From Mytilus trossulus (lineage: Eukaryota): DNA of 64,000 nucleotides. Location: assembly GCF_036588685.1 (NCBI RefSeq), contig NC_086381.1:52328001-52392000 (forward strand). The letters run 5' to 3'. This document shows positions 15,001-64,000 of this stretch, one piece after another; position 1 is the stretch's first letter, and every line of letters starts with the position of its first letter. The notes under the pieces are model-generated. The model searched no databases. It saw only the letters and a list, made by a program, of their open reading frames with translations, and was not told the origin of the DNA. A program made the position numbers and the translations under genes.

Positions 15001-18000
15001 TGTTGCCATACTTGATACTATTATCAATTTTATTTTGAAGGTGACCTTTGATGGAGAAGTTGGAGGAGGATATGCAGGTGATATCGCTATTGACGACATT
15101 CAGGTCCATACTGGATTCTGTAACCAGACTGTTGCCACAACAACCATGATGCCAGGAACCACTGTTACATATGGTAAGATCAACGTAATGTTTTCCTTTA
15201 CTGTGGATTCATTTATTTTCATGGGTATCAATTTTTTGTGGATTGCTGAAAACTTGCATATTTTCGTGGATATAGAATTTTGTGGTTTTGCCAATCTCTG
15301 TATAATAATACAAAGCCTATTGAAAATATGATGTTCATTGAACATTTTAATTCGTAGTTGGCATCCAACAAATAATAATGAATCCACAGTATCTTTTAAA
15401 AAAAACATTATTGTTAAATAATTTAACTTGTTGTATTCAGGGTCATAGAAGTTCTTTTATAAGGTTTCTCTTTTGTATAGATTATTCTAAGTGTTGCAGC
15501 ATTGAAAAAGAACATAGTTTGATTGTAAAAAGTTTATCAGTATAAGAAGACATATTTTAGTTACATTTCTTTTGTGAATGATTCTTTTCCATGTATCACT
15601 GATGTTTATGTCAAACAATGTTTTTTTTCAAACAAAGTTTTTTTATGGCATACAATAATGAAAGCAAGTTGCCATCGTTGATTCATTGTTGTTTGTTTAA
15701 TACTCTTGCACATTTAAACAAGATTAAATAAAACAATAAATTAATAAAGTACCTTAAAGTATGTTCACCAGGAGGGGATACAGGAATTTTGGACTGCTAC
15801 TATAAGGGCTGAAATTTGACCTATAGACTTATCAAACATTTGTTTCAAATATTCTTACAGCTAATTTCCTAATGCATGTAAAGCAAAACTTTAGTTGGCT
15901 TGCTTGCTTTGTTTGTATAAATGTTAATACAAGCTTTGTAAATAAGATTGACATCTTTAAACAATATATATAGGCAAAGTTTAACCTGTATATATAATAT
16001 TTAAACTAAATTATCCTAATGATTGTACAATAAAAAAAAAAAAAAGCAAGCAAGCTAACTAAAGTCTTGCTCTACATGCTTTAGGAAATTAGCTGTAAGG
16101 TGCAGAAATTGTCATACTCTATCTGCAGGGGGGATTACTATTGAATAGAACATGAGAATACAAAAAATAGTGTTCTGTATTAAATTTCAATGATTGATAA
16201 CATTTGGTTCATATTTTTCAGCACCAACAAATGTTGACTGTAACTTTGATGGTAATAACATTTGTCAGTGGACGCAAGACCAAACGAATCAATTCCAGTG
16301 GACAATTAAAAGAGGAACTACTACTTCAGTCTCAACAGGTCCTCCATATGACCATAGTACACAGAGTTCAGCAGGTAACATTTAGATATTATCCCATAGA
16401 ATAGAGAGTTCATTTACTAACTTTTGAATATTTTACAATCGTAATAATACCTTTATTATGTTTAACATTCCTTACTATAGCAACAAAGATTCTTTTCACA
16501 AAGACTTTTTTCATTCTCTCAATTGAAAGTGTCACTGAAAAAGGAAAATTTTGTGTCTCTGTACTTAGCAATTTTGCTCCTTACAGTATTAAACTTTTGA
16601 ATAACTTTTTAACAGTTATTTAAACAGTTGGTATGATTGAAACATGTTAGGATTTTTTTAAAATGTTTGTGTATATTTTTCAGGGTACTATATTTACACC
16701 GAATCATCAGGACGGAAAAGAAATGATACAGCCAGAATTATAAGTCCAAGTGTGTTTATGATGGACAGTGGGAAGTGTGTCAAGTTTTGGTACCATATGT
16801 ACGGAGAAAATATATATCTCATGAACTTCTATGCTAAATCAGGTAATCTTTTATCTATATCATCTCACAAAAGACTTTTTAAAAATATGTATTTTTGTAG
16901 ACTTGCTTTGTTTATTCTTTTTTTTTATATCAAGTATACCCAACATCAGCTTTTAGTAATTTGTTGTATATAACATGCATATTACTCGATTCATTTCACT
17001 TGACTGGGCGGAGTTTAACCGATTCGCTCACAATAAACCAGTCCATCTATAGATAGGCGTTTTAGGATAAACTCATCACTGAAGTGTCCAGTTATTGTTT
17101 TGTAAATTCCTTTGATGACACTGATGGCGATAAGAAATCAGTAATAACTATAACTGCAAAATAGATTGTCCTTATGCCAATTAAAACGTAAGCTACACCC
17201 AATCAGTTGAAATAACATTGGAAATACAAATAACGAATATTATTATACCTTACATATATTTCAAACAATTCTATTGGATAACAACTTTTATCACGTGACA
17301 TGGAATAATTCGGTTAATTTTCAAGGGAGGACAAATAACCCTTAAATTTTACACCAGCGGTGAATAACCCCATTATTCAATGGCGAATAACCTTTTAAGT
17401 GTCTAGATTTGCACTGGAATTACCTCCCATGAAAATGACATCACAGACGTAAATAAACAAGATGGCAGTGTTCAGGTTACACTGACAGCCCATTGAGAGA
17501 TAAGGAAATAAGGCTTTAGAAATGAATAGAGTGCCAGCAGTCGATGATTTATCTTATAAACGGTCCTTTTCAGGGCCATTGATATTTTACAAAAAGATTC
17601 TACCTTTGTTGTACATCCGAGATATTCTTGAACACAAACATGACAAATGGTATTTTCTTGAGCTAGTTTCAACGTCAGCTTGTGTTTGTTATGTAAAAAA
17701 TATGCTAAGTGTTGAAAAGGCCCTTCCACTGTTAGTTAGGTATAATAAAACAATTGTGGCCCCTTAGAATCGATGAATATCAAAAATTGTCAACCCTTAA
17801 AAGTTATTTCACTTGAAATAACCTTCTCGTGTTGACAATTTTGGATATTCACCTTTTCAACGGGCCATAATTGTATATTGTTTTTCAGCAAACATTTATA
17901 AATACTTTTCTCCTATTCCCAAGTCTGGGGAGAGGGGTTAAATTGTATATAACATGTTTAATATCCCTCATTTCATTATACATTTTGATTTCTTTTAATT

Positions 18001-21000
18001 CAGAAAATATTGTGATTTTTTCATTATTGCGAAGAATGTGACAGTAATTTCTGAATTTACAGTAATATAATAGATATATTGTTGTGTACCTGAAGTTCAG
18101 GTAACAATGTTTCTATACCAAAAGAGTGAAAATTCATGGGTTATTTTTCTTCATAGGGACAACTCTCGGAACACCATTATGGACGAAGCAAGGAAATCAA
18201 GGCAACCAATGGGAATATGGACAAGTTTATGTGACCCCACATGCATTGTCATCTGTATCAGGCCAGACTCAGGCAACTGTTGAGGTATTTGTTGTTTAGA
18301 AGACTATTTTATTTAAATTTGTTCAAGAAATAAAGAAAAGAGAAAGTTTAGGACGTGTTTTTTTTTTTATGCTGTATGCTATTGCAGTTAAATTTGTTAT
18401 ATATATAGATTAACTGAAAAAAGGTTACAATGTATAAATTTTTGAACAAAATCATTACTAACATTTGCCAAAAATCAAAGCCAAGGAACAGTACTGTTAT
18501 TGCTTTTTCTTTGGCTTGAAGCATGATGTTTTCTTGACAACAAGATATTTATAGTCATAGAGAACTTGTGAATTTATGATAAATTTTGAAAACATTGTAA
18601 TAACTGATAGGTGCTTATTGACATTGATAAAAAATTAAACAATTAACATATTATATGCAAATTTTGTTGGTTGATTTAGTAGTCCCTAAATGACTATGAA
18701 TTATGAAATAATAATCAAATATTGACTCAACAGAAGTGGTACCACAACATCGTCTTTTTTGCATTGTTTTGTCTATTATGATTTATCATGTGGAAAACTT
18801 TTTTTTCTTACAGTTTGTTTTTGAGGGTGTGTTAGGATTGGGATACAAAGGTGATATGGCTTTAGACGATATATCAATGAATGACGGACCATGTCCACCA
18901 TCAAGTAAGTCTTCTATAAATAGTCTGCATTCTTTACTTCTGTTAATCGGTCATACTGACACAAGGGCAATATGGCTTTAGATGATATATCAATGAATGA
19001 CGGACCGTGTCCACCATCAAGTAAGTCTTCTATAAATAGTCTGCATTCTCTACTACTGTTACTCTGCCATACTATAGAATGTTGAAAATTGACTTGATTG
19101 GCAGGTCTTGTCACATAATTTCTTATGACTTAAAAACTGCATAAATTGAAATGATAGTATGTGAGTAACTTTGCAACCATAGATTTTTAGTTGACAGTGA
19201 TTTGTTTATCGCGATCAGCACTATTTGTCAAGGCAATATATTTTCAAAATATTCAAATCGTTGTTGTTTTAAAAGGCAAATGTGCAAATTACATCCATAT
19301 TGAACATGCACTATTGGGAGTTTGGAGGAGTCTCATCTAGAGTTCCTGTGAAAATAAATGATGAATCTGAAATTTTTTGTGAAAACAGTGTCAAAGACAT
19401 TATAAATCCTGAATTTCTGTCAAAATACAAAATAACTGACTTTTCACAAAACTGTTGCAAATTAAAAAGCTCAATCCTAAATTCCAGAAATAGGTTCTTT
19501 GTCCTGACTATTCTGGAGTGAGTTATTTTGAGATATATACAAATCATTCTAATGCAACTTGGATGTAACATTTTTTTTCATTGGCTTAAAGTTGCCGTCA
19601 AATCCACAGTTGACCAGGCGTAACTAAGGAGGAACCCGCCATTTTGAATTGATGAATCAACAAATGTTCAAATACTACTATATAATCGAAAATAAAACAA
19701 CACCTACCTCGAATTCGCCGTTTCAATGTAACTTTATCTGAATTTGAAGCGTACAAGTAACGTAATATCCTCCAGTTTGTAAGTTTTCATTTGTATGACG
19801 TCACGTTTAGCAATGACGTCTTTGTGCCAAAATCATTCATGAAGTTTCGCGTATTTTTTATATTAGACAAATTTAGACATTTTTTCAAGTTTTATTGTAT
19901 TTTTTCCTTTTGTAATGCATTAGAATCGAAGTAACAGTACTGTAGTTGAAGAGTTGCCACCATATTTTCATTTGACAGTCGCAAATCTCCGTTTTACTGT
20001 CTCCGCTAGGCGTCGCCAGTAAAACTGTGTTTGCGACTCTCAAATCTACAATTGACGGTGGCAACTCTTCAACTACAGTACTGTTATTCCTTAATTGTGA
20101 ATGATGTATGTATAGATACATTGTTAACATGTTTGTTGTTTACTAATGACTATATTTGATACTAGTCTTTTGATATTAATGTTGGAAACATTAAATTTAG
20201 AACACAGCTTATACCATGTAAGTAATCTCTTGTTTCCTTCTTTAACAGGCACCTGCGACTTTGAGACAGTTGACCTATGTGGATATGTCCAGGATTCAAC
20301 TGATACACTTAATTTTGATTGGATAAGAGCATCAGGAAAAACAGCATCAGCTAATACTGGTCCCTCGTTTGACCATACTTATGGTACTAAAGCCGGTAAG
20401 TTCTTAATTATTGAAACATAAAAACCTTTATTTTCAATACTTTTACTGTTTTCAAACTGAATCCTTAAAAAAACGAATGAGCTATATTTGCTTATTTGTT
20501 AATGAAATTGAGAAAGGAAATGGGGAATGTGTCAAAAAGACAACAACCTGACCATAGAAAAAATACATCAGCAGAAGGTCACCAACAGATCTTCAATGTA
20601 GCGAGAAATTCCTGCACCCGGAGGCGTCCTTCAGCTGGCCCCTAAACAAATATATACTAGTTCAGTGATAATGAAAGCCATACTAATTTCCAAATAGTAC
20701 ACAAGAAACTAAAATTAAAAATAATACAAGACTAACAAAGGCCATAGGCTCCTGACTTGGGACAGGCGCAAAAATGCAGCGGGGTTAAACATGTTTGTGA
20801 GATCTCAACCCTCCCCCTATACCTCTAGCCAATGTAGAAAAGTAAACGAATGATTTAAAGTTTTCAGTTTGTTAACATAGTCTGTATATTACTTTGTAAA
20901 AGAACTTGATCCACCTCTTGTTAAAAGTTAATAATGTATCAGAGAAAAGTCTTTGAAATGTTATAAAGTTACTTTATTTGAAAGGGCTTCTATTTCTTTC

Positions 21001-22261
21001 TTTTTTTTATTAATTGCTTACATATAAAACTTCTTCTTTTTTTTTAATATGAAGGTTACTACATGTACATTGAGTCATCCAGACCAAGGTTACCAGGTAA
21101 TAAAGCCAGACTATTAACTCCTAAATATCCAGCAACCAATGGGAAGTGCTTAACATTCTACTATCACATGTATGGAAATGGTATCGGCACATTGAATATC
21201 AAAATGTTCCAACAAGGACAGTTTGTACCACCAATCTGGACAAGGAGCGGTAACCAAGGCAACATCTGGAGAATTGGACAAGTCAATTTAGTAACAGCTT
21301 CTACATTCCAGGTATTTTACTTTTGTAAGGGATAAATATTCAAATGTCATATCAGAAAAAAGTTGGAGTGGATTTTTTTTAAAGGAGAATGGGGCAAATA
21401 AAAAAATGTTGAAGCATCCATCAAAAAGATACTAGATATCTATATGTTTGCCTAATTCATATTTTAGTTGTAGCTTGTAACTCCCTAAAGTGTAGGCAAA
21501 TTTCAAACAAAAACAACTCTCTTGAAAAAACCTCATCACAGATACCAGGATTAAATTTTGTATTTATTCCTGAGTTAGAAAAGCCTTAATTTTTTTTTAA
21601 ATTTAAAAGTTTTCGTAAACAGTTAATTTATAAATATGACCATTTCAATGATAATTTATATGAGCTAACTATATTATTTAGTAGAGATGGCCTTATCATC
21701 AAGCACTTTAAGATACTGTAAATTCAGAAATTATTGCATACATTTATTATTGAGAATTAGAAGAATGGAGATTATTTATTGGGATTTCTGGAAAATCTGC
21801 GTACAGTTATATGTATAAGATATCAGAATGCCAGTTTTAATTATTTCGAAACTCATTCAGTCACATTATTGACAACAATTAAAACCATGCAATCATTTCT
21901 CAATTTATAAATTTGTCAAACATTATTGTATTTTTAGGTAACATTCAAAGCAATTTGTTTGACAAATATATTTGTATTTATAGGTTGCGTTTGAAGCTAT
22001 TTATATGACAAACATTTTTGTATTTTCAGGTTGCGTTTGAAGCTGTTCGTGGTCGTACCTACTCAGGTGATATAGCTATTGATGATGTCAACATTATTGA
22101 TGGCAAATGTCCACCTCCTGGTAACTGTAACTTTGAGAAGGGACTGTGTACTTGGTCTAACGACATAATAGGAGATGATTTTGATTGGATTAGACATCAG
22201 GGAAGAACAGTTAGTTCTGGCACAGGACCAACAGCAGATCACACCATAGGCAACCAGAATG
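90..22261 (+). CDS. MALRD1-like exons 1-26 (intron-rich block: end of a MAM, LDLa-MAM-LDLa, then a run of MAM domains)
   Basis: 26 exons of 91-355 nt; ORF-track fragments such as [32 protein letters not shown] and [24 protein letters not shown] join in frame when spliced. Confidence 0.9.
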
Positions 22262-25200
22262 GTATGTTTCTAAAGTGGATTTAAGTTATTCTACTGTGGA
22301 TTCGTTTATTTTCGTGGGTACCATTATTCGTGGATTGATGAAAACTATAATTGTCGTGGATATTTGATTTCATGGTTTTTCAAATGTCTGTTTTATCACA
22401 CAACACAATTGCTCTTAGTTGAACCTTTACATTTGTGATGTCCATGTACCCACGAAATCCATGAAAATTGGTATCCAACGATTAATATTGAATCCACAGT
22501 GTGTTAATTTTTTTTAATGGCTTGCCCACATGAGCATCTGAACAGTATTACAGCATTTAAATAAAATTTCACAAATAAATGTTTTTAAAAATATTCTAAC
22601 AAGGACATAACTGTGAGAACACATACACTTATAACTGTTAACCAAACTTTGAACTATTCAAATAATAAGGAATTAACTGTAAATCTTAAAATCTGACACA
22701 TAATTGTTGTAAAAATACTTTTTTTTTTAAACAAAAATCTCTCAATTTTACTCTTTTCTCTTTCAGGAAATTACCTATACATAGAGTCATCTAAACCTCA
22801 GCTTCCAGGCCAGAAATCTCGCCTACGATCAGAAGTCCTACCTAAAACTGCAGGCAGTTGTTTTACATTCTATTACCTAATGCATGGAAACACAATGGGA
22901 ACACTTAATCTGTACAAGGATACAATAGGGTTACAGACAGTACCAAATCAACATTTTAGTCTGTTTTCTGTAACAGGGGACCAGGGACTAAAGTGGGTCC
23001 AGGGACTGGTTAACTTGACAAGTACACAAGAATACACATTGGCTTTTGAGGCAGTGATTGGAAACGGATATTCTAGTGATATAGCTATTGATGACATCTC
23101 CATACAGACTGGATTCTGTCCTGCTGTGCCACTGACCAGTAAAATGTATACCTGTACTGGTGGATCATCAATCTCAGCCCTTAAAGTATGCGACTTTGTC
23201 AAAGATTGTCCACAAGGGGATGATGAGAACAACTGTGGAAACTGTACATTTGATGCTTCACAATGTGGATGGATTGATTCAAGTGTGGGATCCTTCAGAT
23301 GGACTAGACATAACAATGGAACAGAAACAGCCAACACTGGACCGCAGAGTGACCACACCACAGGAACAGCAAAGGGTTACTACATGTATGTGGATGCAAA
23401 TTTCGGCAGAAGATATGCATTTGCAACCTTACAGACTCCTACTCTGAGAAAATCAGCAGCAACCTGCCAGATGTCCTTCTGGTATCATATGTATGGACGT
23501 TCTATTGGATCACTTACAGTGTCCAAGGTCATTCAAGGTCAATCTACTGTTCTACAATATTTGTCAAGAAATAAGGGAAATGCATGGCAGCAAGCTACAA
23601 TAAATATTGGCAGAGAGCCGAGAGATTTTATAATACAGTTCATGGCTAGAAGAAGTTTGTCTGTTCTTGGAGACATTGCTATTGATGATGTAACCTTTGT
23701 GAACTGTGGACTACCCCCAATACAAGCATCATGTGGTACCAACCAGTTTAGGTGTCAAAGAGGTTCTTGTGTTGACAACACCCGACTCTGTGACTTCACT
23801 GATGACTGTGGAGACCAAAGCGATGAAACACAATGTTCAGGTTACCCATCTCGATGCTCTTTTACCAACTCATTATGTGATTGGAGTCAGGACAAGGGAG
23901 ACAACTTTGACTGGACAAGAAGAAATTCACCAACACCATCAAGAGGCACTGGACCTACCAGAGACCATACCTCTGGACTGAGAACTGGAGGGTTCGTTTA
24001 TATTGAAACATCAAGTCCAAGGAAGCCAGGTGATGTAGCTAGACTTCTGAGTACACCGTTCCAAGCAGTTTCATCTGTCTGTAATCTAGTCTTTTATTTT
24101 AATATGAATGGAAGATCCGTAGGTAATCTTAATGTTTACATGAGAACAAATGGCGGCAGTACTCCAGTAACTAAACTTCTTACCAAGACAGGCAATCGTG
24201 GGGATATATGGGACAGAGCCAGTATAAATCTAATCAGTCAGTATCCATTCCAGATTATCATTGAAGCAACAGTGGGTGGACTTGTCTATGGAGACATAGC
24301 AATTGATGATGTGGTATTTAGTAAAGGATGTGTCAAGGCAGGAAATGTCATCTTCCCAACAGCTGTTACTATTCCTGCGACTGTGCCGACACCTAATCAA
24401 TGTTCAAATGGACAAGGTAACTTCAAAGCCTGTGGATCATGTGACTTTGAGTTGTCAACTTGTGGCTGGACCGATTTAAGTAATGGAAGATATAATTTTA
24501 GTCGACACTCAGCTACTCAAAACCAGGGAGCAATAGTTGGACCCCCAGTGGACCACACCAAGGGATCACCCTCTGGATACTATGTATTTGTAGAAGGTTC
24601 ACAAGGAGTATTCTTCAGTAAGGCATTATTCCAAAGTCAACTGCTTCCCCCATCAGCCAGCACTTGTGAGATGTATTTCTACTTTGACATGTTTGGTCCA
24701 AATGTTGGAACTCTGGTTGTCTCTGCTAATATAAATGGAACAATAACAAACTTAAACGTAATAAGAGGTGACCAAGGAAGAGGCTGGCACCTAGGAAAAG
24801 CATACATTGGACAGAAACTTGGAGCCATCAGTTCTCCATTTAGAATGCAACTGAGTGTCCTTCCTGCAAGGTCATTTGCAGCCTCCACTACAAATGATGT
24901 TGGAATTGATGATATTTCATTTGTAAACTGTGACCAGAATGTAGCACCACCTAATATAAGTTGTAACTTTGATAGTGGAATATGTAACTGGACCCAAGCT
25001 ATCGATGATGACTTCCAGTGGACCTTAAAAAGTGGTTCCACACCATCCCCAGGAACTGGACCACCTTCAGATCATACATCAGGCAAGGGCCAATACATAT
25101 ATATTGAAACATCTTCTCCAAGGAAGAGAGGAAACAGCGCTGTAGTAGACAGTCCAGTGTTGCCACCCACACCAGCCCAGGGTAACTGTCTTTCATTCTG

Positions 25201-28200
25201 GTACTACATGTATGGACCAACTATTGGAAATTTACAAGTTTTTGTCACATCATCATCAAGAAGGTCTCTGTTCTGGTCTAAAGCAGGAACACAACCTGAC
25301 CAATGGGTTCAAGCCACCAGAACTATTAATTCAACAACAGATTTCAGAATGTCTATAACTGGAACTGTTGGAAAAGGACCCCAGGGTGATATAGCAATAG
25401 ATGATCTTACCTACACTGCTGGACCTTGTCCATTAAAACCAGGATGTGACTTTGAAAGTGGTTTCTGTGATTGGCAACAGAGTACAGCTGATGATTTCAA
25501 TTGGTCAATAGGTGTAAATGGTACAACATCAAGGGGAACTGGTCCCCCATTCGATCACACATATGGATCCAGCTCAGGTCACTATGCTTATATTGAAACT
25601 TCAGGACAACAACCTAATAACAGAGCAGTACTTACAACTCCTACAATTCTAGGACAGGCATACCAGGCTAAGTGTATGCAGTTCTGGTATCACATGTATG
25701 GCACAACAATTGGGTCTTTAAATATCTATATCCAAAATAATGGATCACAAGCACGTCAAATTTGGTCAAGGACAGGAAACCAACAAAACATTTGGAGGCA
25801 TGGACAAGTCAACATAAACAATTACGGACCTTACAAAGTTTTAATTGAAGGGGTCAGAGGTCTTAGTTACCAGGGTGATATTGCCATTGACGATGTTGTT
25901 ATTACTGATGGTTCGTGTTCTCCTGCAGGAACTTGTAATTTTGAACAGGATACCTGTGGATGGACCAATGCTTTGGTAGGAGATAATTTTGATTGGCAGA
26001 GAGATTATGGTGGAACAAGAAGTTCTAGGACTGGACCTAATGTAGATCATACCCTAGGAACTGTTCAAGGTCATTATATGTACATTGAAACATCAGGTAG
26101 TGGAAGAACCATTGGTGAGAAGGCATGGTTGGTCAGTGATATTATGAAACCAATAACCAGTGGCTGCATGAATTTCTGGTACCACATGTATGGAGCAGGT
26201 GTTGGAAAATTGAATATGTACAAACAGACATTTGGAACCACATCTATGAACTTAATATGGTCGTCCTCTGGTAACCATGGAAATGTATGGTTGATGTCAA
26301 CAGTTGCGGTTTCTTCTGCACAAGAGTTTAATGTGATCTTTGAAGGAGTGTATGGAGGAAATTATACTGGAGACATTGCTATTGATGATGTCAGCTTTAC
26401 AACATATGGATGTTCACAGATACCACCATCAACTACTTCAATGTACCCACCATCCACATCCAGAAGTCCATATCCACCAACAGCTATAGATTGCAACTTT
26501 GAAAATGGTATATGTTTATGGAATCAAGATCAAAATGATACATTTGATTGGTCAATGCATACAGGAGCAACCGTGTCGGCAAAAACAGGACCAATATCAG
26601 ATCACACACTTCAGAACTCAGCTGGACACTACGTTTATATAGAGGTATCAGGGAAAGCAGCCAATAGTACAGCAAGAATAATAAGTCCCAATGTCAACAT
26701 ACGTTCATCTGGTGTGTGTTTGAAGTTCTGGTACAATATGTATGGTGCTAATGTCAATAGACTGAATGTGTACTCTAGAAATGGTGGTGTGATGAGTCAA
26801 GTGTGGACTCGACTTGGAAACCAAGGTTTAGACTGGAAGTATGCTCAGGTACACATAACAAATCAAGGACTTGGTCAGCAGCTTGTGTTTGAAGGTGTGG
26901 CTGGAACTAGTTATAGTGGGGACATTGCACTGGATGATGTTACATTTAACACTGGAGACTGTCCACAGTCAACTGTATGTGATTTTGAAGATGGCCTCTG
27001 TGGTTACACACAAGATAAAAGTGATCAGTTTGACTGGACCCTACATACAGGAAGGACTAATAGTAATAGAACTGGACCTAGTGCAGATCACACTTTCCAG
27101 ACAAATGAAGGAACTTATATTTACATTGAGTCATCTTTACCTAGACATCAGAATGACAAAGCTCGACTAGACTCACCACTTTATCCACCTACTAGTGGCT
27201 CTTGTCTCAACTTCTATTACAACATGTATGGCAGAAATGTAGGAGCACTGAAAGTCTACATCAGACCAGCTGGTATCACTACCTTAGGTCGTCCTATGAG
27301 GACATTTGGACATAACCATGGAACTGACTGGTTTCCAGCTCAGCTTACTATCCAGAGTGGTACCCCATATAGGATAACATTTGAAGGGGTTATTGGTAAT
27401 GGCTATCAAGGTGACATTGCACTGGATGACATCATGCTGCGAACAGGAAGCTGTTCACCTAGAGGAAGCTGTGACTTTGAGCATGATACTTGTGAATGGA
27501 GAAACCGTGGAAATGACAAGTTTGACTGGGAGAGAGTGCATGGTAAAACTGTTACTTCAAATACTGGACCACCAGCTGATCACACTTTGAACACACAATA
27601 TGGAACTTACCTATACATAGAAGCTTCAACACCAAGAAAGCCTGGTGACAATGCTATCATTAGTTCACCATGGTTCCCTAATATTAATTCAAGCAGATGT
27701 TTAACATTGTGGTATAACATGCATGGTTCTGGGATGGGAACACTCAATATCTATAAATGGCTGCCAAGACAACAGAAACAGAAGGTCTTTTCTCTGACGG
27801 GAGAGCAAGGTACTGCATGGAAACAAGCCCAGGTGACCATACCACCCACAGCATCTGTTGGATACATTCTCTACATTGAAGCAGTTGTTGGTAGTAGTTA
27901 CCTAAGTGATATTGCTATAGACGATATATCTGTTATTGACTCCAGCTGTGCAGCAATACCCCCAACAACAACTGCATCATCATGTGCATACACATGTACA
28001 GGTGGAAATAGACAGTGTATAAGTAGTGACAAACTTTGTGACTTCAACCTAGATTGTTCTGATGGTGGAGACGAAGCACAATGTGGATATAGTTGTACAT
28101 TTGAAAATGGTCAGACATGTAAGTGGACGAACAGCTCCAAGACTTCCTTTACATGGTTAAAATTCAGAGGTGCTACTCCAGATTCCAACACTGGACCTTC

Positions 28201-31200
28201 AACAGATCATACAACAAATGGACCAAATGGATATTACATGTATGTGGATGCAAGTAATGGAGGATTTTACAACCATGCATACTTTACCAGTCCCATGTTA
28301 AAACAAGCCGCAAGCACCTGCCAAATGTCATTCTGGTATCATATGTACGGTTCAGGGATTGGAAACTTGTATGTGTTCTCCAAAACATCAGGAAGTTCAA
28401 CAAACACAAGACTTTGGAACTTGGCTGGAGATCAAGGCAACCGATGGAACCAGGCTATAGTCAGAATTGGTAGAATTGATACCAACTTCCAAATGATTAT
28501 TGATGCACGCAGATCATTCAGTACACAAGGAGATATTGCTATAGATGATATACAGTTACAGGGCTGTGGACTTCCTGCCGTTAGTACATCATGTGATACA
28601 ACTCATACTTTCCGTTGTCAGAGAGGATCATGTATATCACAGAATCGTGTTTGTGATTACACTGATGACTGCGGTGACAATACAGATGAACAGATCTCAA
28701 CCTGCAGCGCCTATCCAGGATGCAACTTTGAAACTGGCTTATGCAAATTCCAACAACTACAGGATGATGACTTTGATTGGACAAAGCGAGCAGGAACCAC
28801 TCCAACAGTAAATACTGGACCAGCAAGAGATCACACACTGAATACAAACTCTGGACAATACCTTTATATTGAAACATCTACACCTAGACAGCCAGGACAA
28901 AAGGCACGACTTGCTAGTCAATTCTTTCAAGCAGTACCAAACACTCCATATTGTACAATGAGAATATATTACTTCATGTTTGGAAAAGATGTAAATACAT
29001 TAGCAATCTATACAAGAACTGTCATAAATGGAGCACAGTTGCTGAGATACAGGAGAACAGGAAATCTAGGAGAGTACTGGGAAAGAAGGGAGATCACTGT
29101 GTCATCAACAGCACCATTCCAGTTTATTATAGAGGCAACTGTTGGTCAGTCAGCTTATAGTGACATTGCCATAGATGATATATCATTTACCACAAATTGT
29201 AGACCATACATGGGATCAGTATCAACTGTACCTGCAGGCTCTGTGACAACAGTGGCACCATCTGGTAAATGTCCTACAGGACAGTTCCAATGTACCAATG
29301 GTAAATGTATCAATGCCGCTTTAAGATGTGATTTCCTAAATCAGTGTGGTGACAATTCTGACGAACTTCAATGTCAGGAGTGTAACTTCCAATTCTCAAC
29401 ATGTGGTTGGGTAGACAAGAGTTCAGGAAGATATCAATGGGACAGACATAATGGATCCACATCTACTGGTCCTAGGACAGACCACACCTACGGCACCTCA
29501 TCCATTGGTAATTACATGTATGTGGATGCAGGCACTGGACAATCATATGGAAAAGCTGTACTAGTTGCACCACCATTTGGCAGCCTTAATTCTTTATGTC
29601 AACTTACTTTCTACTACTACAAGAACACAAATTCGGCCAATTCATCACTTCAACTCTTCTTGGTACCTGCTAATGTTCAATACAATGCAAACTTTGGTAG
29701 GATCAGAGTATGGTCAGCTTTTGGTAATCATGGTAACACTTGGAATTTGGCAACCGTTGGTATTGGCAGACGACAACCTGGATACTACCTTGTTTTGGAA
29801 TCTGTGCATTCTGGGACAGTAGATACGGCTGTTGATGACTTCCATTTTACAAACTGTGGGTTAGGTCCATCAACAACATTCTGTACAAACAATCAGTTTA
29901 CATGTGCAAGAAAATCTTGTGTCGATCTATCCTATGTATGTGACTATTCAGATGACTGTGGGGACCAATCAGATGAAAAGAATTGTACAAATTATGTTGA
30001 ACGTTGTAATTTTGAAACAGATCTTTGTAATTGGATTCAAGATGATACAGATAATTTCCAGTGGAGTTATGGACAAGGGAAAACATCAACCACTGGTACA
30101 GGTCCAGGGTCTGATCATACATATGGAACCACTGTAGGACATTATGTATACATTGAGTCCTCTTCTCCAAGGAAAATGGGAGATGCAGCCAGATTGAAGA
30201 GTCCTGTATTCTCTCAAAATTCTAATAATTGTAAAATAAGGTTCTATTATCATATGTATGGAGCTGATATTAATGCTCTCAACTTGTATGTGGAAAATTA
30301 TGAGACTGGACCAAGAAGCTTACTATGGACAAAGAATGGTTCTCAAGCTGACATGTGGATAAGAGCAGTGGTATCACTTACTAGCTCATCACCATTTAGA
30401 GTTGTAATAGAAGGGGTCAGAGGTAAAGGTTACAAAGGTGACATTGGAATTGATGATGTATCCTTCACTCCAGGATGTCAGGTAGTTTCAAGAGGGAAAC
30501 TCCCATATGTTTTTACACCCCCAGGGCCATGTGGAAAGGGCAAGTGGCAATGTACAAATAAGAATTGTATAGATTACAACAAGATGTGTGACTTTAAGAA
30601 TGATTGTGGTGACAACAGCGATGAATTGATGTGTCCTTCATCCTGTACATTCAGCAGCGGCAGCACATGTTATTGGACAAATAGTAATCCAGGAAACTGG
30701 ACAGTGACAAGCAATGGTAACCCTACACAAAATACTGGACCAAGCAGTGACCACACTTCTCCTACTACAACAAATGGAGGATATGCAGTTGCAAACAAAA
30801 TAGCCAATGGCACAAGTAATATATTCCGTTTCAATAGCCCCTTATATCATCAAGCTGGAAAGATGTGTAACTTCTCTCTGTGGTACAATATACATGGACA
30901 TGGATTTAGACAATTCCGTATTCTAATTCAATCTGGTGGCTCAGAAAGCACACTATTTTCACTTTATTATAGTGCTTTAAACAAACAAAATGGACAATGG
31001 CAACAAGCTCAAGTGGCATTACCTATTTGTGCGCAACAATTTCACATCATAGTAGAAGCCATAAGTTATGGTAGAAGAGCTGGATATGTTGCAATTGATG
31101 ATCTTCAGTTCAGTAACTGTGTAACACCCCAGTCTACAGGATCTTGTACAGCAAACCAGTACACTTGTCTCAGTGGCAACTGTGTCCCAATGAACTTGAG

Positions 31201-34200
31201 ATGTGACCTTCAGAATGATTGTTGTGATGGTTCAGATGAGATCAATTCCCTTTGTTCTGGATACAACCAGTGTACTTTTGAATACACAATGTGTGGCTGG
31301 CAGCAATTGAAAAATGATCAGTTTGATTGGATTAAAAAGAGAGGCCCTACTTCTTCATCTGGAACAGGTCCAAGTCAGGATCATACGACAGGTTCAAGGT
31401 CAGGCTATTATCTATATATAGAATCATCTAGACCTAGAAAGCAGAATGACACAGCTAGCATTGGTTTGTACTTGCCATCACCAACTGGCCAGTGTTCAAT
31501 GAGGTTCTGGTATCATATGTATGGATTGAACATAGGATCTCTAAATGTTTATCAAAATACACTAAGTACGGGAAAATCACAACTCGCTTCTATATCATCA
31601 CAACAAGGAAACAAATGGTTAAGAAAAGAAGTAGTATTAACATCTAATTCGCCATTCCAGGTCATCATTGAGGGCGTTGTTGGAGCCGGTGTTTCTGGTG
31701 ACATAGCTATTGATGATATAAGTTTCACACCAGGATGTGGTCAACCCAAGTATGTTACACCATCTGTAAAACCAATGACCACACCACGACCAAATCTCTG
31801 TCAACCAGGACAGTTCCAGTGTGATAATAACAAATGCATCAATAATGGACAAGTTTGTAATTTCTATACAGATTGTGATGATGGCAGTGATGAGAAGAGA
31901 TGCCCAACTGACTGTACATTTGAAGGAGGACAAGGTAATTGTGGATTTAATGAAACTCAAGTAGATGGTTTTGATTGGCAAGTTGGAACTGGTGGTGACA
32001 CTTCAAGACTTGTAGCACCAGCAGTTGATGCTACTAAACAAAATCAAAATGGTCACTTCCTGTATATTAATGACGGAACTGGTGGACATCCAAGTGGCAA
32101 AAAAGCTGAAGTGAGGAGTCCAACTTACACAGTAGCTAATGCAGATTGTAAAGTGATGTTTTCATACTACGCATATGGTCAGAGCCTGGGAACACTTTAT
32201 CTATACGTAGTTGAAGGGACTGTAAAAACACAATTATGGAGATTATCAAAGTTTGTACGCAAAACAAATGACCAGTGGCATACAATTACAGTTGGTATCG
32301 GTCACCGTAGCAAACCTTTTAATCTTCTCTTCACTGACACAGCATCAACATATAGTGGAGGTACCGCTCTGGACGACATAAAGTTTGCAGATTGTAGCAT
32401 GCAACCAGCAGTTTCCACTTGCAACACCCAGACACATTTCTCGTGTGGTAACAAAGCATGTATTGGTTTGAATTACTTATGTGACTTGACTGACAATTGT
32501 GGAGATGGTACAGATGAACTTAATTGTGGAACTTACAAGGAATACAACTTTGAGACTGGATTTAGTGACTTGATACAAAGTAATAATGGTGATGATGACT
32601 TTGATTGGACACTATTTTCTGGAGCAACATCAACTTCATATACTGGTCCCTTATGGGATCATACAACAGGAACCAGTCAAGGTCATTACATTTACATGGA
32701 GGCTTCTGGTAGAAAATTCAATCAGAAAGCATGGTTGATAACCAAACCATTCTACCGTACAACTGGAAAGGATTGTAGTATGAGATTCTACTCCTACATG
32801 TATGGACAGTATGTAAATACGTTGACAGTTTATTATAGAATCTACAACTCCGGCTCACCAACCAAAGATCTTTTCACCAGAGCTCAGGAACAAGGAGCAT
32901 ACTGGGAAAGGCATGAGATACCACTGAATGTCAGTCAAAGTTTCCAGATTATCATAGAGGCCAAGGTTGGTGACAGTTACCTTGGTGATATTGCCATTGA
33001 TGATTTGACCTTCACACCTGGTTGTCAATTTGCCCAGGAAGGCTTGCCAAATCCACCAGCCACTATACCATCACCATCTCAGGGAGCAGTGACCACACCT
33101 GTACCTAAGTGTGATCCAGATACACAGTTCCAGTGTCAACAGTCAAACAAGTGTATTCCAAAGTATAGAGTCTGTAACTTCCAACAGGACTGCAATGATG
33201 GGTCAGATGAATTTAATTGTGGTGAGTATTTGTAATTTTCTTATTGTAAAGCAATATAATAATTCCCACAGAAAGTAACCAAAAGTTAGGGTGCAATAAA
33301 TTCTGATATTGCACTAGTGCAATAAATCTGCAAAATTCATGACGTCATCAATGCCAAAATCATGGTTTAAACAAATTTTTACTCTCCAATATTATATTGC
33401 TATATTATAAAAGGGTTATTGCATGAATATTGGGGAATATTGTCCCTTGTAGAACATATGTAGTAGCACTTACAAGCTCTTGCAATATAAAATTCTACTC
33501 AGGACAATATTCCCCAATATTTATGCCCTATATTATTAAATAATGTACAGTTAAATCTGATTAAAATAAATTGAAAAGATTTACTTGTCCATATAAAGGC
33601 ATTTGGAAAGTCTTTCTTTATTTTCCTAAAAATTTACAAGGAATATTGGCCTTATATACTTAAATTCGTTGTTTATCTACATTTAAATTTGTGCTTTTAG
33701 TCCATATAAATTGATACACCAGTTGTTATTACAACAGCAACAATTCTGTTCAATGTCTTCAATTAGTTTCATGACACTTATAAGGCTTAACATTATAATT
33801 ACATAAAACAAAATAAAAATTAGAAGTTAGTAGTTGCATTATTGTTTTTTTTCAAACAGTGGAGGTTTCCTGTGGATTTGGACTAGATGAGTTATGTAAC
33901 TGGAATATCAACTCCTCATTAACTGCTACACCAGATCAAACATACAAATGGAAAATAGACCAAGGAGTTACCAAAATCAAAGGGACAGACTTTAGACCAA
34001 ACACGGACCAGAGTGGACAAGCTCAAGGATATTACTTGTGGGCTGACAGCTCTCCTGGATCCTTTGACAGCCATACAGAGCTGTACACACCAATAATAGG
34101 TCAGACTGGACCCCAGTGTGCTTTAGGATTGTACTATTTCATTCGTGGACCATCAGTAGGAGCTCTTGAGGTGTATACTCTCTTCAACAACCAAACAGAT

Positions 34201-37200
34201 CATTTATGGTCTGTTGAGGGCAATCATTTTGGTAGATGGCAACATGCAAGCGTCTTTATTGGAGCACGTTCAAATTTCCAAATTGTGATACAGGCAAGAC
34301 GCGGCCGTTCATTCCAAGGAGATATTTCTCTTGACACAGTGCAGTTTATTAACTGTCCAGCACCAGAACCCTTTGTAGGAGGTTGTCAGACTGGACAATT
34401 CCAATGTGCTAATGGATACTGTATAGATCAGAATAACCGCTGTGACTATGCTGATGATTGTGGGGATCAGAGTGATGAATATGTAAGTTTTTATTATATT
34501 GAAAGTGACAACCAAATTTCATATAAATTTTCCACAGGGATTGTCTCAGATTTTTATGCCCCGGCAACGAAGTTGTCGGTGCCATATAGTTTTACCCTTG
34601 TTAAATTGTTGAAAATCTCAGTTATATGGAAATTTTTCTATATGCTTCAGATTTTGAGACTACCATCATGTTTGTGTCCACATGTGTTATTGAAATTGCA
34701 GATTTTTCTACTTTTTGAGACAGGGCCATTGGTGTCGCTTTGTCACATCTAGTTTTTTTCTACATTCCCTAATTTAACACAGTATATAGAAAAAAATATT
34801 CTGAGATAAATGCCTATGGTATTTTACTCTAGATTACTGCAGAATTAAAATACACAAAAATTCATCAGCAATAGATAACACATGTCAAAAATGTACAAGT
34901 AGTTATTTAAGGTTCATATAATGTTGGATTATCATTTGAGTAGCATGACTCGGTTACCAAGAATATTTGAAAAAAAGTGACACCCAAGATTTATGCTCAT
35001 CTTTATATTTAGTTATTTGTTTTCATGTAAAATGAATGATTACTGAAAAAGTTATCACCACAATTAAAAAGTTATTCATATCCTCAATTGATTTTCAGCC
35101 TTTTTGTGAAATATCAAATTTAAATCTATTATTTTTCCTCTCCTCAACAGGCAGAAACATGTGACTCAGTGTACAAAGGAAGGTGTAGTTTTGAGCATGG
35201 TATTTGTCAGTCATGGTTTAATGACATCACGGATGACTTTGATTGGAAACTATCATCAGGCTCGACTGCTTCCAAGGGAACAGGTCCAGTTACAGACCAC
35301 ACAACAAGATCACGACAAGGTAAGATAAGTTGTTGAGGTTTACACACTATGTTTAGCTTATTCACCTTTTTAGATCTAAAGGACTATGGATAATCTCATT
35401 GTTTGTTTACCAAAATGAAAACAACATTATGTCATTGGTTAAATTTTCATTGTTTAAGAGGTATTCAACCTATCACAAAATATAACGTGACGGTACCCAA
35501 ATTGCACCTATTTTGACAGTTTTTCACCTACGTTTTTTTATGATCAAGAAGAAAATATCCATACTGTGTTTATTTTGTAGCCCTATCCTTCTTTATTGTA
35601 TAGGTACACCAATTTATTTTTTAATCCATATTGAGTCATAAAAAAATGGGTTTGAATCAACCTCCAAACTTTCCATGATTCTGTAATAAGGAGTACCCAA
35701 ATTGCATCCATGCTTAAATTCACATCGTCAAAAGTCTAATAACCGAGCTTTTGTTTAATTTCTTCAAATATTTTAAACAATTGGATATTAGTCCATGCTT
35801 ACTTTTCATATTTTTCGAAATGGATACTCATAACATATTGTATTTGCTAATTTTGAAAAGATGATGTTTTGATGACATCACACGGTGACGTTTTCGTACA
35901 TTTTGCTTTTTCAGTAAACAGTCCATCTGTTGATAAATACTGTGAACGTTTTGTGTAAATCTAAATATGTTTACCTATGTTGAAAGACGTGCATAGTATC
36001 AAATCATAAAAAAACAAATTGTTTAGTCTCTAGGAAATCTTGTAAGAATACCATTGCTATTTTTTCTAAATAGGTGCAATTTGGGTACTAGGTGCAATTT
36101 GGGTATCCTTACGTTAGGTTCAGCTTTTGAAAATATTACCTGAAAATGTATTAGATTAGAATGATTAGATACTGTGGATTCCTTATGGGTTTCCTGGGTA
36201 TATGTGAACCATGAATTCAAATGTTCAATGAATATCATATTTTCAATTGGCTTTGATTACAGAGATTGGCAAAACCACAAATTTAAATATCCACGAATAT
36301 GCAAGTTTTCAGCAATCCACGAAAATAAACCAATCCACAGTATTAGAAACAGTGATTTAATAACCATAGGCAAAATTACACTACAATCTGACATGTGGAA
36401 ATGATGAAATAATTGTTACTTGCTGGATCCAAATATATATTTAAATATCCAAAAAAGTATTAATTCCTAGTAGATCTTTAGATATTTTTGTAACAATAGA
36501 TTGCTTTTTTCTCCAGGAACCTACCTTTATACTGAGAGTTCAGCTCCAAATAAACCAGGTCAAATAGCAAGATTGGCTTCATACATCATCAAAGGAAGCG
36601 TAACCAACTGTCAGGTATTTAGTTTATATACATGAGAATAACAAGTTTTTTTAGTTGTACACTTTATACATTTAGCGAACCCATTCCAAGATAATTTGAA
36701 TGTCATGAATGAATGATTTACATGTGACCTTGTTTTTTTTTTTTTATTTCAGTTGAGATTTTATTATCACATGTGGGGTCAAGAAATTGGATCATTGGCC
36801 ATTATAAAGAGGTACAATTATATGTCTGATGGAATTTTAGTGATAGGAAATATAACAGGGAACCAGGGTGACAACTGGATCCGAGGACAATATGATTTAA
36901 CGGAAGATTCTATAAATATGAATCAGAACTTTGAGGTAAGAACAATATCTTAACTTTTGCAATTATAAGATTTAAAAATTTGGTAGGTTTTGACATATCA
37001 AAGCATAGTATAAACAAGACATCTAACTTGTAGGGATTCTATAATTCTATCCCATAATAAAACATATGTCACACTTGATGAGGGGCGTAAATAGGGGTAT
37101 CTGCTCAGAAGAACTTGAAATAAAATTGCCATTTCACGATGAACAAACAATTAAAAATTTCTTGCATGATGATCGCTTTACCTATATCACAAAACCCGGT

Positions 37201-40200
37201 AATTAAGGAACTTTTTTCAAGGTTGCACATGAATTAAAAATGGCAAAACATGTTGCATGAAAATAACTGTTTACCACCCTCCTTGATAGATGTTATCTCA
37301 AAAATTAACCAGTGTGTCACTTTTTGATACTACTTTCTTGAACAAAACAATGAATGATCATTAATTCAACAACATTTTACTACAGGTGGTCCTTCAAGGA
37401 CAAATTGGAAATGGTTACCATGGTGATATTGCTATTGATGATATTTCCCTAACACCAGGATGTGAACAAGCACCCATAGGAAGTAAGTTATTTTTATAGT
37501 CAACTCTCCCAAAAACTCTCATCTTTTCAAATAATAAATGCACAATGATTTGACCCTATATTTAGGATATGTTCATGTAAATGGTTCAAAGGTAGTTTGA
37601 TAGTTTGTTCCAAATTTGAATAAACACCATTAAACACTTCTGCCAAAAAATAATTCTGCAGATTTGAGGGTTCAAAGGGAAAGATCACACATTTTATGAA
37701 TATATGATAGGTTTATGATTATAAAAGAGGCTCCCACAGGGTACCCCCCTTAGGTTGCAAGGTCGCTTTTAAATTCATCTAGAGGTCGTTTTTAAGTGAA
37801 ATGTACAGGTCGCAGGTCGTTTTTTCCCAACACAGAGGAAGGAAGTCGGTCAGAGGTAGTTTTTTCCAAATTTTACAGGTCGCAGGTCGTTTTTAGATGG
37901 CCATCAGGTCAAATGGCATCTAAAATGCCCAGAGGTCTCATAAAATCATGGTGAGAAAAACATAAATAGTTTTTAGAAAGAATATATTTATGCAATCTCT
38001 TTATGGTGAAGAAGAAAAGCATTTTATCTATGATGATTTATGACACAGGGTAAAGCAATATCAATATAATTAAAATGAGTAAGAAGTAAATATGATGATC
38101 TTATCTTGTAGCTGCATTACCAGGCCAACCTACCAGACCCCCAACAACCGTAGGAGCATGTGGGTCCAACCAACTCACCTGTGACAACGGTAACTGTTAC
38201 TCAGCTGATCAAAGATGTAACTTTATTGATGACTGTGGAGATAGCACCGATGAAAGATTATGTGGTAAGTGCACATAACATTTATAAGACAGCAAGTCAG
38301 CATCACAAATTTGCCAAAGTATCCTTATTAAACTACTAATGAAAGTAAATGTGGTAGTATACAAAAAGTTAATGTGAAAGCAACCTAAACACATTTAGCA
38401 TAAGTAATAGAAAAAGGTCAAGTACAGATTTTAGTGATGGACAAGTGGACACCAGACTGGTCACCATGAATCTTTTCAACTAATTCAACAGCACCAATTA
38501 AATTGTTGATTGAAGATTAATTATATATATGAATATCTGGTTCATGCTTACTAATAAAAAAAAATGATGACCCTGATTAACATTTGGTGCCAAGTTAGTA
38601 ATGTATTTTATTTAAATATATACTTTAGTGATCGCAATGTCATTACATGTACAACTCATTATGCAATTTTATTCCAGGAACAACTTGTCAATTTGAAAAG
38701 AGTACCAGTAGTCAATGTGGATGGAGAAACACAATTAGAGACAATATAAACTGGATACTAAATAGCGGTAAAACACCAACAAGCCGTACTGGGCCTATTA
38801 CTGATCATTCTGTGGGAACACCACAAGGTTTGTTATTCAATATATGACACTTAGTTTTTCAAAGAAATCTTCATAAGTCTTTTTTTTTTTTTTCATATTT
38901 GATGAAATTTTTTCTCTTGTCAAATATTATGCAAAAAGTTGTTGATATAGCATTAACATTTTTTTTTTCATTTAAATCTTTGTAATTTATAAGTAATTGC
39001 TCAGAAATCCAATGTTTATTTCTGTTTTCTAAGTTGATTTTTACACTTTGTGTTAAGTTGCTGATTTTTTTATGTGATACCTTGCATCTCTTTTTATTTA
39101 CATGTATACAAAACATATTTTCCCCGTTTTTTACAGGTCATTACATGTACGTGGAAGCAAGTGGTAGTCGTCTTGGTAACAAAGCCATTCTAATGAGCGA
39201 CATCTACTCTCAGTCCGGACCATCATGTACGATGACATTCTGGTACAACATGAATGGCAGGAATATAGGGACACTAAACATCATCCTGAAAAATGGTGCA
39301 GGACAAAACAATATCTTACAATCATTGACTGGAAACCAGGGTCCGGGATGGAAACAGTTGACAGTTCCGTTGCCAAGTTACAACCATTTCTCAGTATTGT
39401 TTGAAGCTGTCCAAGGAAATGGTTACCTTGGTGATATTGCAATTGATGATATACAGTTTAACAGCTGCGCTCCAAGTAAGTGGTATTTTAATGTAGAACC
39501 ACTGGCTGATTGCTGGTGTGTTTATTTATCAATTGTTTTTCATGAAAAATTATTTAAAGATAGGAAGTTCATATTTATTTGGGCACGAAACTTCATAAGA
39601 AGACATTTTTGTTTCAGACATGATAATGTGTAGTTATGATGATCAATTTGTACGTCATATTTCTTAATTGTTCAAGACATGTTCTAACGAGAGAACATTT
39701 ATCATGCTAATTAGTAAGGTCATGGATAGATTTAACTGATTTCATATTCCAACGGCTGGTTTAATTATGCTAATTAGGAAGGTCATGGGTAGATTCAACT
39801 GATTTTATATTCCAATGGATGGTTTAATTATGTTCCTGTCAAATTATTTTGCAGCTATTGAAGTAAAGTCTTGTCCAAACTCACAATTCCAATGTGCTAG
39901 TAAGACACAATGTATAGAAAGAAGATACAGATGTGATGAAAAGACGGATTGTAGTGATTCTTCAGATGAAGATGGATGTACCAGTAAGTATGATGAAAGG
40001 AAAGATTTTTTAAAACTAAAAAACAAAAGATCAAAGTTACTTTCTTTACCAAAATTGGTTTTTTTTCCCAATTTTTTTTTTTATCTTAATTATAGCAAAA
40101 ATAAATAAAGAGATATTGTATAATTGACTCCATTTTAAGGAGGATAATTTCTTTGAATAACAATATTACAATTAGAAAGAGAAGAAATATGATTCTTGTT

Positions 40201-63400: not shown

Positions 63401-64000
63401 ACCCCTATGTTCTATTTTTAGCGGTGGTGGCCATCTTGGTTGGTTGACGGGGTCACGCCACACATTTTTTAAACTAGATACCCTAATGATGAATGTGGCC
63501 AAGTTTGGTTTAATTTGGCCCAGTAGTTTCAGAGGAGAAGATTTTTGTAAAAGCTAACGACGACGGACGACGACGACGGACGATGGACAACAGACAACGG
63601 ATGACGACGACGGACGCCAAGTGATGGGAAAAGCTCACTTGGCCCTTTGGGCCAGGTGAGCTAATAATATTCAAGATAATATCCAAAAACAGCAAAATTT
63701 CCTTAAAATTACCAATTCAGGGGCAGCAACCCAACATCCAGTTGTCCAATTCATCTTAAAATTTCAAGGCAGATAGATCTTGACCAGATAAACAATTTTA
63801 CCCCTTGTCAGATTTGCTCTAAATGCTTTGTTTTTTGAGTAATAACCAAAAACTGCATTTAACCTCCATGTTCTATTTTTAGCCGTGGCAGCCATCTTGG
63901 TTGGTTGGCTGGGTAAAAAAACACACTTTTTAAACTATATACACCAATGATGATTGTGGCCAAGTTTGGATTAATTTCGTCAGGTAGTTTCAGAGGAGAA
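60489..64000 (+). mobile_element. Helentron/HINE (DINE-1/pearl-like) non-autonomous elements with ~500-bp tandem core repeats
   Basis: 5' ends aactagag..ctaaagagcctgtgtcgctcacct at 60489 and 61321; core marker ataatattcaagataataaccaaaaacagcaaaatttcc at ~60840, 61676, 62702, 63201 and 63664; GACG/ACGG microsatellite 63557-63617; 3' hairpin agctcacttggccctttgggccaggtgagct at 63632-63662. Confidence 0.8.
61788..62306. mobile_element. TIR element inserted in a HINE core repeat
   Basis: CATAGATGCCAACC...GGTTGGCATCTAAG; the host motif gcagatagatcttga is split, with an apparent ~6-bp duplication cagata/tagata. Confidence 0.72.

Follow-up and report, generated by a model that had tools for sequence, protein, structure and literature searches.

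A giant internal exon in a MALRD1-like gene of the mussel Mytilus trossulus and the probable ancient loss of its introns

Introduction

Concerted intron loss is usually seen as the disappearance of a few introns between close relatives. In the available text of the reports concerned, the model based on reverse transcription (RT) of messenger RNA (mRNA) entails precise loss of adjacent introns toward the 3' end of a gene, with the last introns spared (PMC3652778, PMC2395259); meiotic recombination has been offered as a route to internal intron-free tracts, and the extreme intron-loss cases of Cryptococcus measure just over 4 kb (PMC2395259). Large fused exons are predicted, in the available part of the source, to survive if their flanking introns are short enough for intron definition (PMC2614967). 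The present study concerns a 64,000-nucleotide (nt) stretch of the 1.3-Gb genome of the mussel Mytilus trossulus (contig NC_086381.1, positions 52,328,001 to 52,392,000, forward strand), hereafter the window, which contains a giant internal exon of a gene encoding a MALRD1-like protein of MAM and LDLa domains. A 2005 paper by Niu and colleagues reportedly deals with large exons and mRNA-mediated intron loss. Giant exons of another kind, those of mucins, AHNAK and titin, arose from internal repeat expansion.

With these last proteins the mussel gene shares an internal coding exon of more than 10 kb in a repetitive protein; it is set apart from what is generally described for them by the absence of a tandem repeat and by domains that do not form a clade. 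The locus resembles cases of RT-mediated concerted loss, as the available text of PMC3652778, PMC2395259 and PMC2614967 presents them, in the adjacent, apparently precise and 3'-ward loss that spares the last introns and in the outsized internal exon. It differs in scale (a few introns in the cases presented there; here 45-60 introns over 10.5 kb, reaching 13.8 kb from the stop codon), in age (shared across bivalve subclasses and beyond) and in an apparent later regain of introns. It also contains a built-in control, because its 69 paralogous domains share ancestral intron sites. What is out of the ordinary is the extent and antiquity of the loss, not the kind of process. No published account of the giant exon was found in the open literature, subscription journals lying mostly outside the search, and RefSeq oyster models already include its sequence.

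As to the gene itself, MALRD1/Diet1 and the coral MAM-and-LDL-receptor proteins have, in the available parts of their descriptions, the same interspersion of MAM and LDLa domains followed by EGF, a transmembrane helix and an NPxY tail (PMC8804323, PMC4890752). The C-terminal EGF, single transmembrane helix and NPxY tail are present in the mussel gene, as read from its translations, and domains 61-69 with the tail are colinear with shark and chicken MALRD1. Vertebrate MALRD1, however, has nine MAM and nine LDLa domains, whereas only the last nine of the 69 mussel MAMs correspond to it; compared with MALRD1 and the coral proteins, the mussel gene has ~60 extra N-terminal MAMs arranged in triplets and super-repeats, and no trefoil domain. 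These alignments identify the predicted protein as a long-form MALRD1/Diet1 homolog and not the vertebrate form. A signal peptide and a role in FGF15/19 or endosomal traffic also belong to the picture of MALRD1/Diet1-like proteins. mRNA-mediated intron loss presupposes expression in the germline; a MALRD1-like gene of oyster, which may or may not be the ortholog of the one described here, rises in the female gonad according to the available part of its report (PMC8353863).

Structure and Splicing of the Giant Exon

A preliminary description of the window, drawn from the letters alone, had announced a 10.5-kb internal exon at 22767..33221, and this exon of 10,455 nt is a genuine spliced exon of a gene for a MALRD1-like MAM/LDLa membrane protein of ~12,900 residues (Table 1). 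Contigs from four runs were compared with window positions 20001-39990, one run being RNA-like (X5) and three DNA (X6, X12 and X1). The RNA-like contigs have the joints 22261>22767 and 33221>33860, so that the exon is spliced at both ends, and they tile it with gaps of at most 31 nt. Internal cryptic splicing, a possibility raised earlier, is absent among the joints listed for X5, which come from contigs only, and contigs drop rare forms. The DNA contigs of X6 and X12 run through both boundaries into the introns, and those of X1 also pass both, by 34 nt at the 5' end and 186 nt at the 3' end; a chimeric assembly, against which such spanning had been proposed as a check, is thereby refuted. Probed with three DNA sequences and one protein sequence, the assembly (G000) yielded no second genomic copy of the exon.

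The exon lies between an acceptor ...tttcag|GA and a donor GTG|gtgagt, which rank first and 22nd, respectively, among the gene's 162 under the splice matrix of this study. Its flanking introns of 505 and 638 nt compare with a gene median of 545 nt, lengths that fit the prediction in the available part of PMC2614967. The exon is likely to be spliced by intron definition across two ordinary introns of ~0.5 kb, aided by a strong acceptor. Cryptic donors number 4 in the exon against 9.4 expected from 100 synonymous shuffles, and 3 against 8.9 in the spliced upstream coding sequence (CDS), an equal depletion, while cryptic acceptors show no depletion in the exon relative to synonymous shuffles; special purging of cryptic splice sites was ruled out on these counts. 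Nor does the composition show a sign of foreign origin: the GC content of third codon positions (GC3) is 0.30 in the exon and 0.31-0.32 in the flanks, and CpG is equally matched.

Empty Intron Sites and Origin of the Domains

Two intron positions recur in the MAM domains of this gene: site A, a phase-1 intron before the GxYxYIE strand, and site C, a phase-0 intron before the xxEG strand. The ten phase-1 and nine phase-0 donors enumerated in the preliminary description were all recovered by the gene finder (19 of 19), and its 47 other window exons of 36-623 nt were confirmed in the same way, the last three by hand; 26 of them precede and 21 follow the giant exon. In the rest of the gene, 46 of 52 domains carry the intron at site A and 38 of 51 the one at site C, and 45 of 50 linkers are filled. 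Inside it, where some 17 MAM domains without either intron had been claimed, Pfam recognises 18 MAM stretches (17 whole and the second half of one) and 10 LDLa, and none of the 52 usual intron sites is filled (log10 P = -43.6 under independent loss). The longest run of empty sites elsewhere in the gene is two, among ~150 outside sites, and single-site losses there affect 10-25% of sites. Neighbouring repeats and coral-like relatives have one intron per ~200 bases; 60 introns would be expected in the giant exon by the flanking density, and ~45 by that of the outgroup loci L040 and L083 (15 introns in 1,179 residues).

All 17 aligned rows are free of indels at site C, as are 12 of the 14 rows listed for site A, a weak hint, after so long, that the introns were removed precisely. 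Both sites often lie in an AG|G-like coding context. The exon starts mid-domain, as had been stated, in the second half of MAM 48 and directly after an intron at site A; such a start is expected of any partial loss and argues only against insertion of whole domains. In two other loci (L049 and L066), absences of site C are domain-specific and match those of the best-matching mussel domains, so that isolated losses in the upstream array could in some cases date equally far back.

The domains themselves are old. No tandem repeat was found inside the exon, and on a quick domain tree its 17 whole MAMs require 13 changes against a shuffled mean of 15.2, being scattered among intron-bearing MAMs and pairing in order with the intron-bearing domains 40-46. 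The intron-bearing super-repeat unit of domains 40-48 and the intron-free unit of domains 49-57 are colinear and 46% identical. The unit of the giant exon is joined in the tree by amphioxus and echinoderm units (88), the upstream one by further echinoderm units, which places the super-repeat duplication before the protostome-deuterostome split. Expansion of an intron-free unit was ruled out: there is no tandem repeat, and since the domains are deeply diverged and not a clade, the exon was not built in that way.

Introns in Outgroups

Of at least 73 related loci found, 26 were modelled, automatically. Locus L040, a relative of the cnidarian-like P0188 in the tree (0.96-0.99), matches domains 58-61 in colinear order. 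L083 scores about equally at three paralogous places and was assigned by eye to domains 62-64 on its diagnostic double-cysteine LDLa; together the two loci fill 7 of 10 A and C sites inside the segment in a profile-based count. The P0188 cluster, on a 421-kb contig, has exon-sized open reading frames (ORFs) running from site A to site C or to a domain end; its cnidarian label derives from a trefoil domain like that of the coral protein (PMC4890752, in the part available) and from a Paramuricea-like tail. Exon-sized ORFs also lie inside the segment in Paramuricea and Trichoplax clusters, and shark isoform boundaries fall there at site A of the equivalent of domain 61. Since cnidarian-like, octocoral, placozoan and shark introns all occur inside the segment, the direction was loss and not gain. 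These comparisons indicate that the introns are ancestral and the giant exon derived, in agreement with the proposal, made from the window alone, that the positions were ancestral and emptied as a block.

Distribution and Age

A homolog search returned records of ~3,400-3,540 residues, several on contigs of 0.7-3.6 Mb, and 29 protein records were picked for length and ends. Thirteen of the 29, from 10 clusters of 49-98% identity, run from domain 48 to the same donor, with an intron-like C-G-K/E read-through tail; four of these, together with the oyster record P0014, have intron-like sequence directly before the site-A glycine. Seven others share the 3' end. An intron at the position of the 3' flanking one can be deduced for 20 of the 29 and is seen in locus L041. 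The remaining nine end elsewhere, oysters (identified from named cluster members) 113 residues earlier and two others 1,099 earlier. A clam clade (P0019/P0021/P0022) ends 90 residues earlier, at site C of domain 65, and the heterobranch-like P0051/P0082 143-145 residues earlier (+76, phase 0, domain 65). Both groups are nested among carriers of the giant exon and have introns at ancestral-type sites of domain 65, of the same two kinds as in domain 67; transfer between repeats or late independent loss is possible.

In trees, the mussel protein groups with pteriomorph bivalves, next to oysters, and giant ORFs occur among pteriomorphs, among clams with Mya and Dreissena, and among gastropods, while P0018/P0062 fall outside gastropods and bivalves, inside a spiralian clade. 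Pteriomorph and imparidentian bivalves share both boundaries with each other and with P0018, and gastropods, judged from protein records, have most of the block in single ORFs. A recent, species-specific loss was ruled out by the same ORF in distant bivalves, and the giant exon is likely, on these protein comparisons, to be older than the bivalve-gastropod split, an age that would exceed 500 million years. The earlier reading of the window had overlooked this great age, the sharing across bivalves and beyond, and the apparent regain in one clade.

Other, unplaced members of the MAM/LDLa family (P0070, P0225, L033:267-3041 and L037:2-5287) have single ORFs of 925-2,812 codons whose ends differ, which raises the possibility that the family acquired giant exons repeatedly.

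Possible Refilling in One Clade

Locus L038, 17.3 kb long, follows the order of domains 50-65 and contains 45 introns. Only 6 of its 29 A and C sites are filled, and 15 of the 45 introns are in phase 2; L085, L057 and L067 have the same unusual positions. In six loci of the same record series from beyond the block, 19 of 28 sites are occupied (Fisher p = 0.0005 against L038) and 3 of 46 introns are in phase 2 (p = 0.0015); site filling in L038 also differs from that in the cnidarian-like loci (p = 0.008), and L072, from L038's own assembly, fills 4 of 7. Few canonical sites and many odd positions are the pattern expected if the block was emptied and then refilled. The rotifer locus L035, rewritten throughout as judged by eye, was left out of these counts. 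L038's placement varies by tree, with P0018 (99.7), with a cnidarian-like row (99.6) or, weakly, with Macrostomum; an approximately unbiased (AU) test with 2,000 replicates places it best beside P0018 and rejects 3 of 11 positions.

Helobdella, of a spiralian lineage, is likewise described in the available part of its report as having many novel intron positions (PMC4085046); in L038, by contrast, the novelties cluster in the very block that relatives have empty, and its record series keeps canonical sites outside the block. The gastropod-like ORF P0357 begins at L038's phase-2 LDLa intron position (F-R|C), a coincidence that would reflect either parallel gain at an AG|GT context or retention.

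Mechanism and Rival Explanations

We consider it moderately probable that an intron-free, mRNA-derived copy overwrote the locus in one or a few conversions, removing 45-60 adjacent introns before the bivalve-gastropod split. The donor would have been a complementary DNA (cDNA) or a processed retrocopy, the conversion would have taken place in an early spiralian ancestor, and sparse gains in oysters, some clams and snails, with a dense regain in the L038 clade, would have come later. Of the original proposal of loss through reverse-transcribed mRNA, the ancestral state of the introns and their disappearance as a block stand, while the RT step itself is presumed. The loss had been called central rather than 3'-biased, which was an effect of the window's edge. 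MAM exons extend at least 106.5 kb upstream (G000:C9:52221507 onward), and because the gene starts at least 106 kb before the window, the exon is central only within the window; it occupies 65-92% of the modelled CDS if the gene is one transcript, a position that fits the ordinary RT model.

Several observations weigh against this interpretation. A poly-A-primed cDNA would have to reach at least 13.8 kb from the stop codon, plus the untranslated region, a difficulty that would shrink if the donor was a processed retrocopy or was primed internally, and the 3' bias holds only if the ~39-kb gene is one transcript. Lineages differ in where the 3' end falls, in two cases at ancestral-type sites of domain 65, and the next exon, of 623 nt, also lacks three sites, both of which suit stepwise loss. 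No processed copy of the gene was found in G000 with four probes, which speaks against a surviving retrocopy there; old copies would have decayed; and giant-ORF DNA from distant species is absent among the at least 73 loci listed. As regards L038, its six canonical sites exceed a uniform expectation, three of them lying in a CAG|GT-like context; the record series used for its comparison need not be one clade; and 8 of 11 positions survive the AU test, including some outside the giant-exon clade. With 6 of 29 sites kept, L038 may represent an outgroup whose block was never completely emptied.

The alternative that these points suit best is a ratchet of many short cDNA- or RNA-templated losses, each longer tract easing the next recombination, partly independent by lineage. 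Single-intron losses are common in the gene, the ragged ends at ancestral-type sites and the intron-poor next exon agree with it, and no 14-kb cDNA is needed; we nevertheless judge it unlikely, if deserving serious weight, since the ends are the same in pteriomorphs, imparidentians and P0018, where an ongoing ratchet would have shifted both, and no other empty run exceeds two. That the exon is instead an inserted processed part-copy, never intron-bearing at this place, is quite improbable: its 5' half is indeed a colinear intron-free paralog of the upstream unit (46% identity), but both units have separate echinoderm orthologs with amphioxus grouping beside the exon's unit, the 3' half lacks a paralogous parent and its positional orthologs bear introns, the exon starts mid-domain, and L038 is an intron-bearing ortholog of the 5' half.

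Independent genomic deletions of each intron, by nonhomologous end joining or microhomology under regional selection against introns, are very improbable; such mechanisms are on record (PMC3698931, in the part available), but the probability of the empty run is vanishing without a regional cause, GC3 and CpG are as in the flanks, and the domain types do not differ from those of the neighbours that bear introns. The AG|G-like context of sites A and C and the long ORFs of P0070, P0225, L033 and L037 could speak for a segment ancestrally free of introns, with flanks that gained them at favoured proto-splice sites, yet this view is largely refuted and merits barely any credence given that cnidarian-like, octocoral, placozoan and vertebrate orthologs carry introns within the segment and, wherever this could be judged, at the same sites. 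Least credible is an artefact, whether an assembly chimera with a retrocopy, contradicted by the boundary-crossing DNA contigs of three other runs and the same ORF in other species, or an exon normally cut by exitrons: only part of the joints was listed and contigs drop rare forms, but the RNA contigs tile the exon without an internal joint among those listed.

A bolder form of the conversion hypothesis is tentative, and we hold it possible rather than probable: one cDNA conversion of more than 10 kb would have erased ~50 introns in the ancestor that molluscs share with one or more further spiralian phyla, the ends being kept for more than 500 million years in several lineages, and L038, L085, L057 and L067 would have refilled the stretch with new introns to normal density. 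If this single erasure and refilling is true, the locus amounts to a natural erase-and-rewrite test of intron gain with a known date and, for the phylogeny of spiralians, a rare genomic marker. A blank 10-kb stretch of known age makes the rate, phase and site preference of intron gain measurable per lineage, with counts of none for most bivalves, 1-3 for oysters and snails and 45 for one clade, and spiralian phyla might be ordered with the aid of the block's presence or absence.

The Whole Gene

The gene model was obtained with a gene finder trained on the locus, followed by hand curation, in which five boundaries were moved and several calls removed: 12 tandem copies of exon ends, one copy of an LDLa end, two calls derived from transposons, and the weak ones at both gene ends. 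The curated model has 163 exons, 38,602 nt and 12,866 residues without a stop; with three last exons read by hand, the total comes to ~166 exons and ~38.7 kb of CDS. The 69 MAM domains are followed by LDLa, EGF, the transmembrane helix and NPxY motifs. Upstream of the giant exon lie 144 exons with 25.0 kb of CDS, and downstream ~21 exons with ~3.3 kb.

Table 1. Features of the gene within the window
Feature	Position	Strand	Description
Giant internal coding exon	22767..33221	+	10,455 nt, phase 1/1, single open frame of 3,484 codons
Domains of the giant exon			Second half of MAM 48, MAMs 49-65 of 69, 10 LDLa and one degenerate LDLa
5' flanking intron	22262..22766	+	505 nt, at canonical site A
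3' flanking intron	33222..33859	+	638 nt, phase 1, after LDLa
26 small exons	90..22261	+	Domains 40-48, canonical introns
Intron-free super-repeat unit	23120..27960	+	Domains 49-57, LDLa-MAM x3 and six MAM
MAM-LDLa array	28094..33221	+	Domains 58-65, colinear with shark and chicken MALRD1 from domain 61
623-nt exon	33860..34482	+	No introns at sites A and C or in the MAM-LDLa linker
16 small exons	35151..47031	+	MAMs 67-69, LDLa run, EGF-like repeat
Four last exons	48104..49925	+	Hand-read translations; stop at ~49925
Transmembrane helix	48104-48200	+	Hand-read; followed by a cytoplasmic tail with two NPxY motifs

The exon at 33860-34482 lacks three canonical sites, yet locus L041 carries site A there. 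Further MAM-rich genes occur in the same genome (G000:C7 at ~49.36-50.07 Mb, C9 at 68.6 Mb, and C11), where the frames of the matches listed do not exceed 212 codons.

Repeats and Mobile-Element Traces

Tandem duplications of exon ends, including splice sites, lie at window positions 823-1208, 18854-19073, 578-682 and 21917-22044; they comprise four copies of a 97-nt LDLa end with its donor, two copies of a 116-nt exon end, and acceptor repeats of 37 and 46 nt. Farther upstream, at G000:C9 ~52314127-52315321, there are 12 extra 104-nt copies of an exon end with its donor. Duplicated exon ends are possible raw material for alternative sites or new introns. A 30-nt minisatellite of 42 copies occupies 9734-10994 and accounts for the minus-strand frame of 451 codons at 9644-10996. 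Two upstream introns contain pieces recognised by eye as derived from mobile elements: a fragment like the reverse transcriptase of long interspersed nuclear elements, by its motifs, at G000:C9:52287593-52289922 (intron L018/L017), and broken pieces resembling a tyrosine-recombinase transposon at G000:C9:52271352-52279345 (the 8-kb intron L019/L018). Near the end of the window, at 62325-63616, a 500-nt tandem repeat of 2.5 copies is followed by a GACGACG run and is likely the end of a mobile element.

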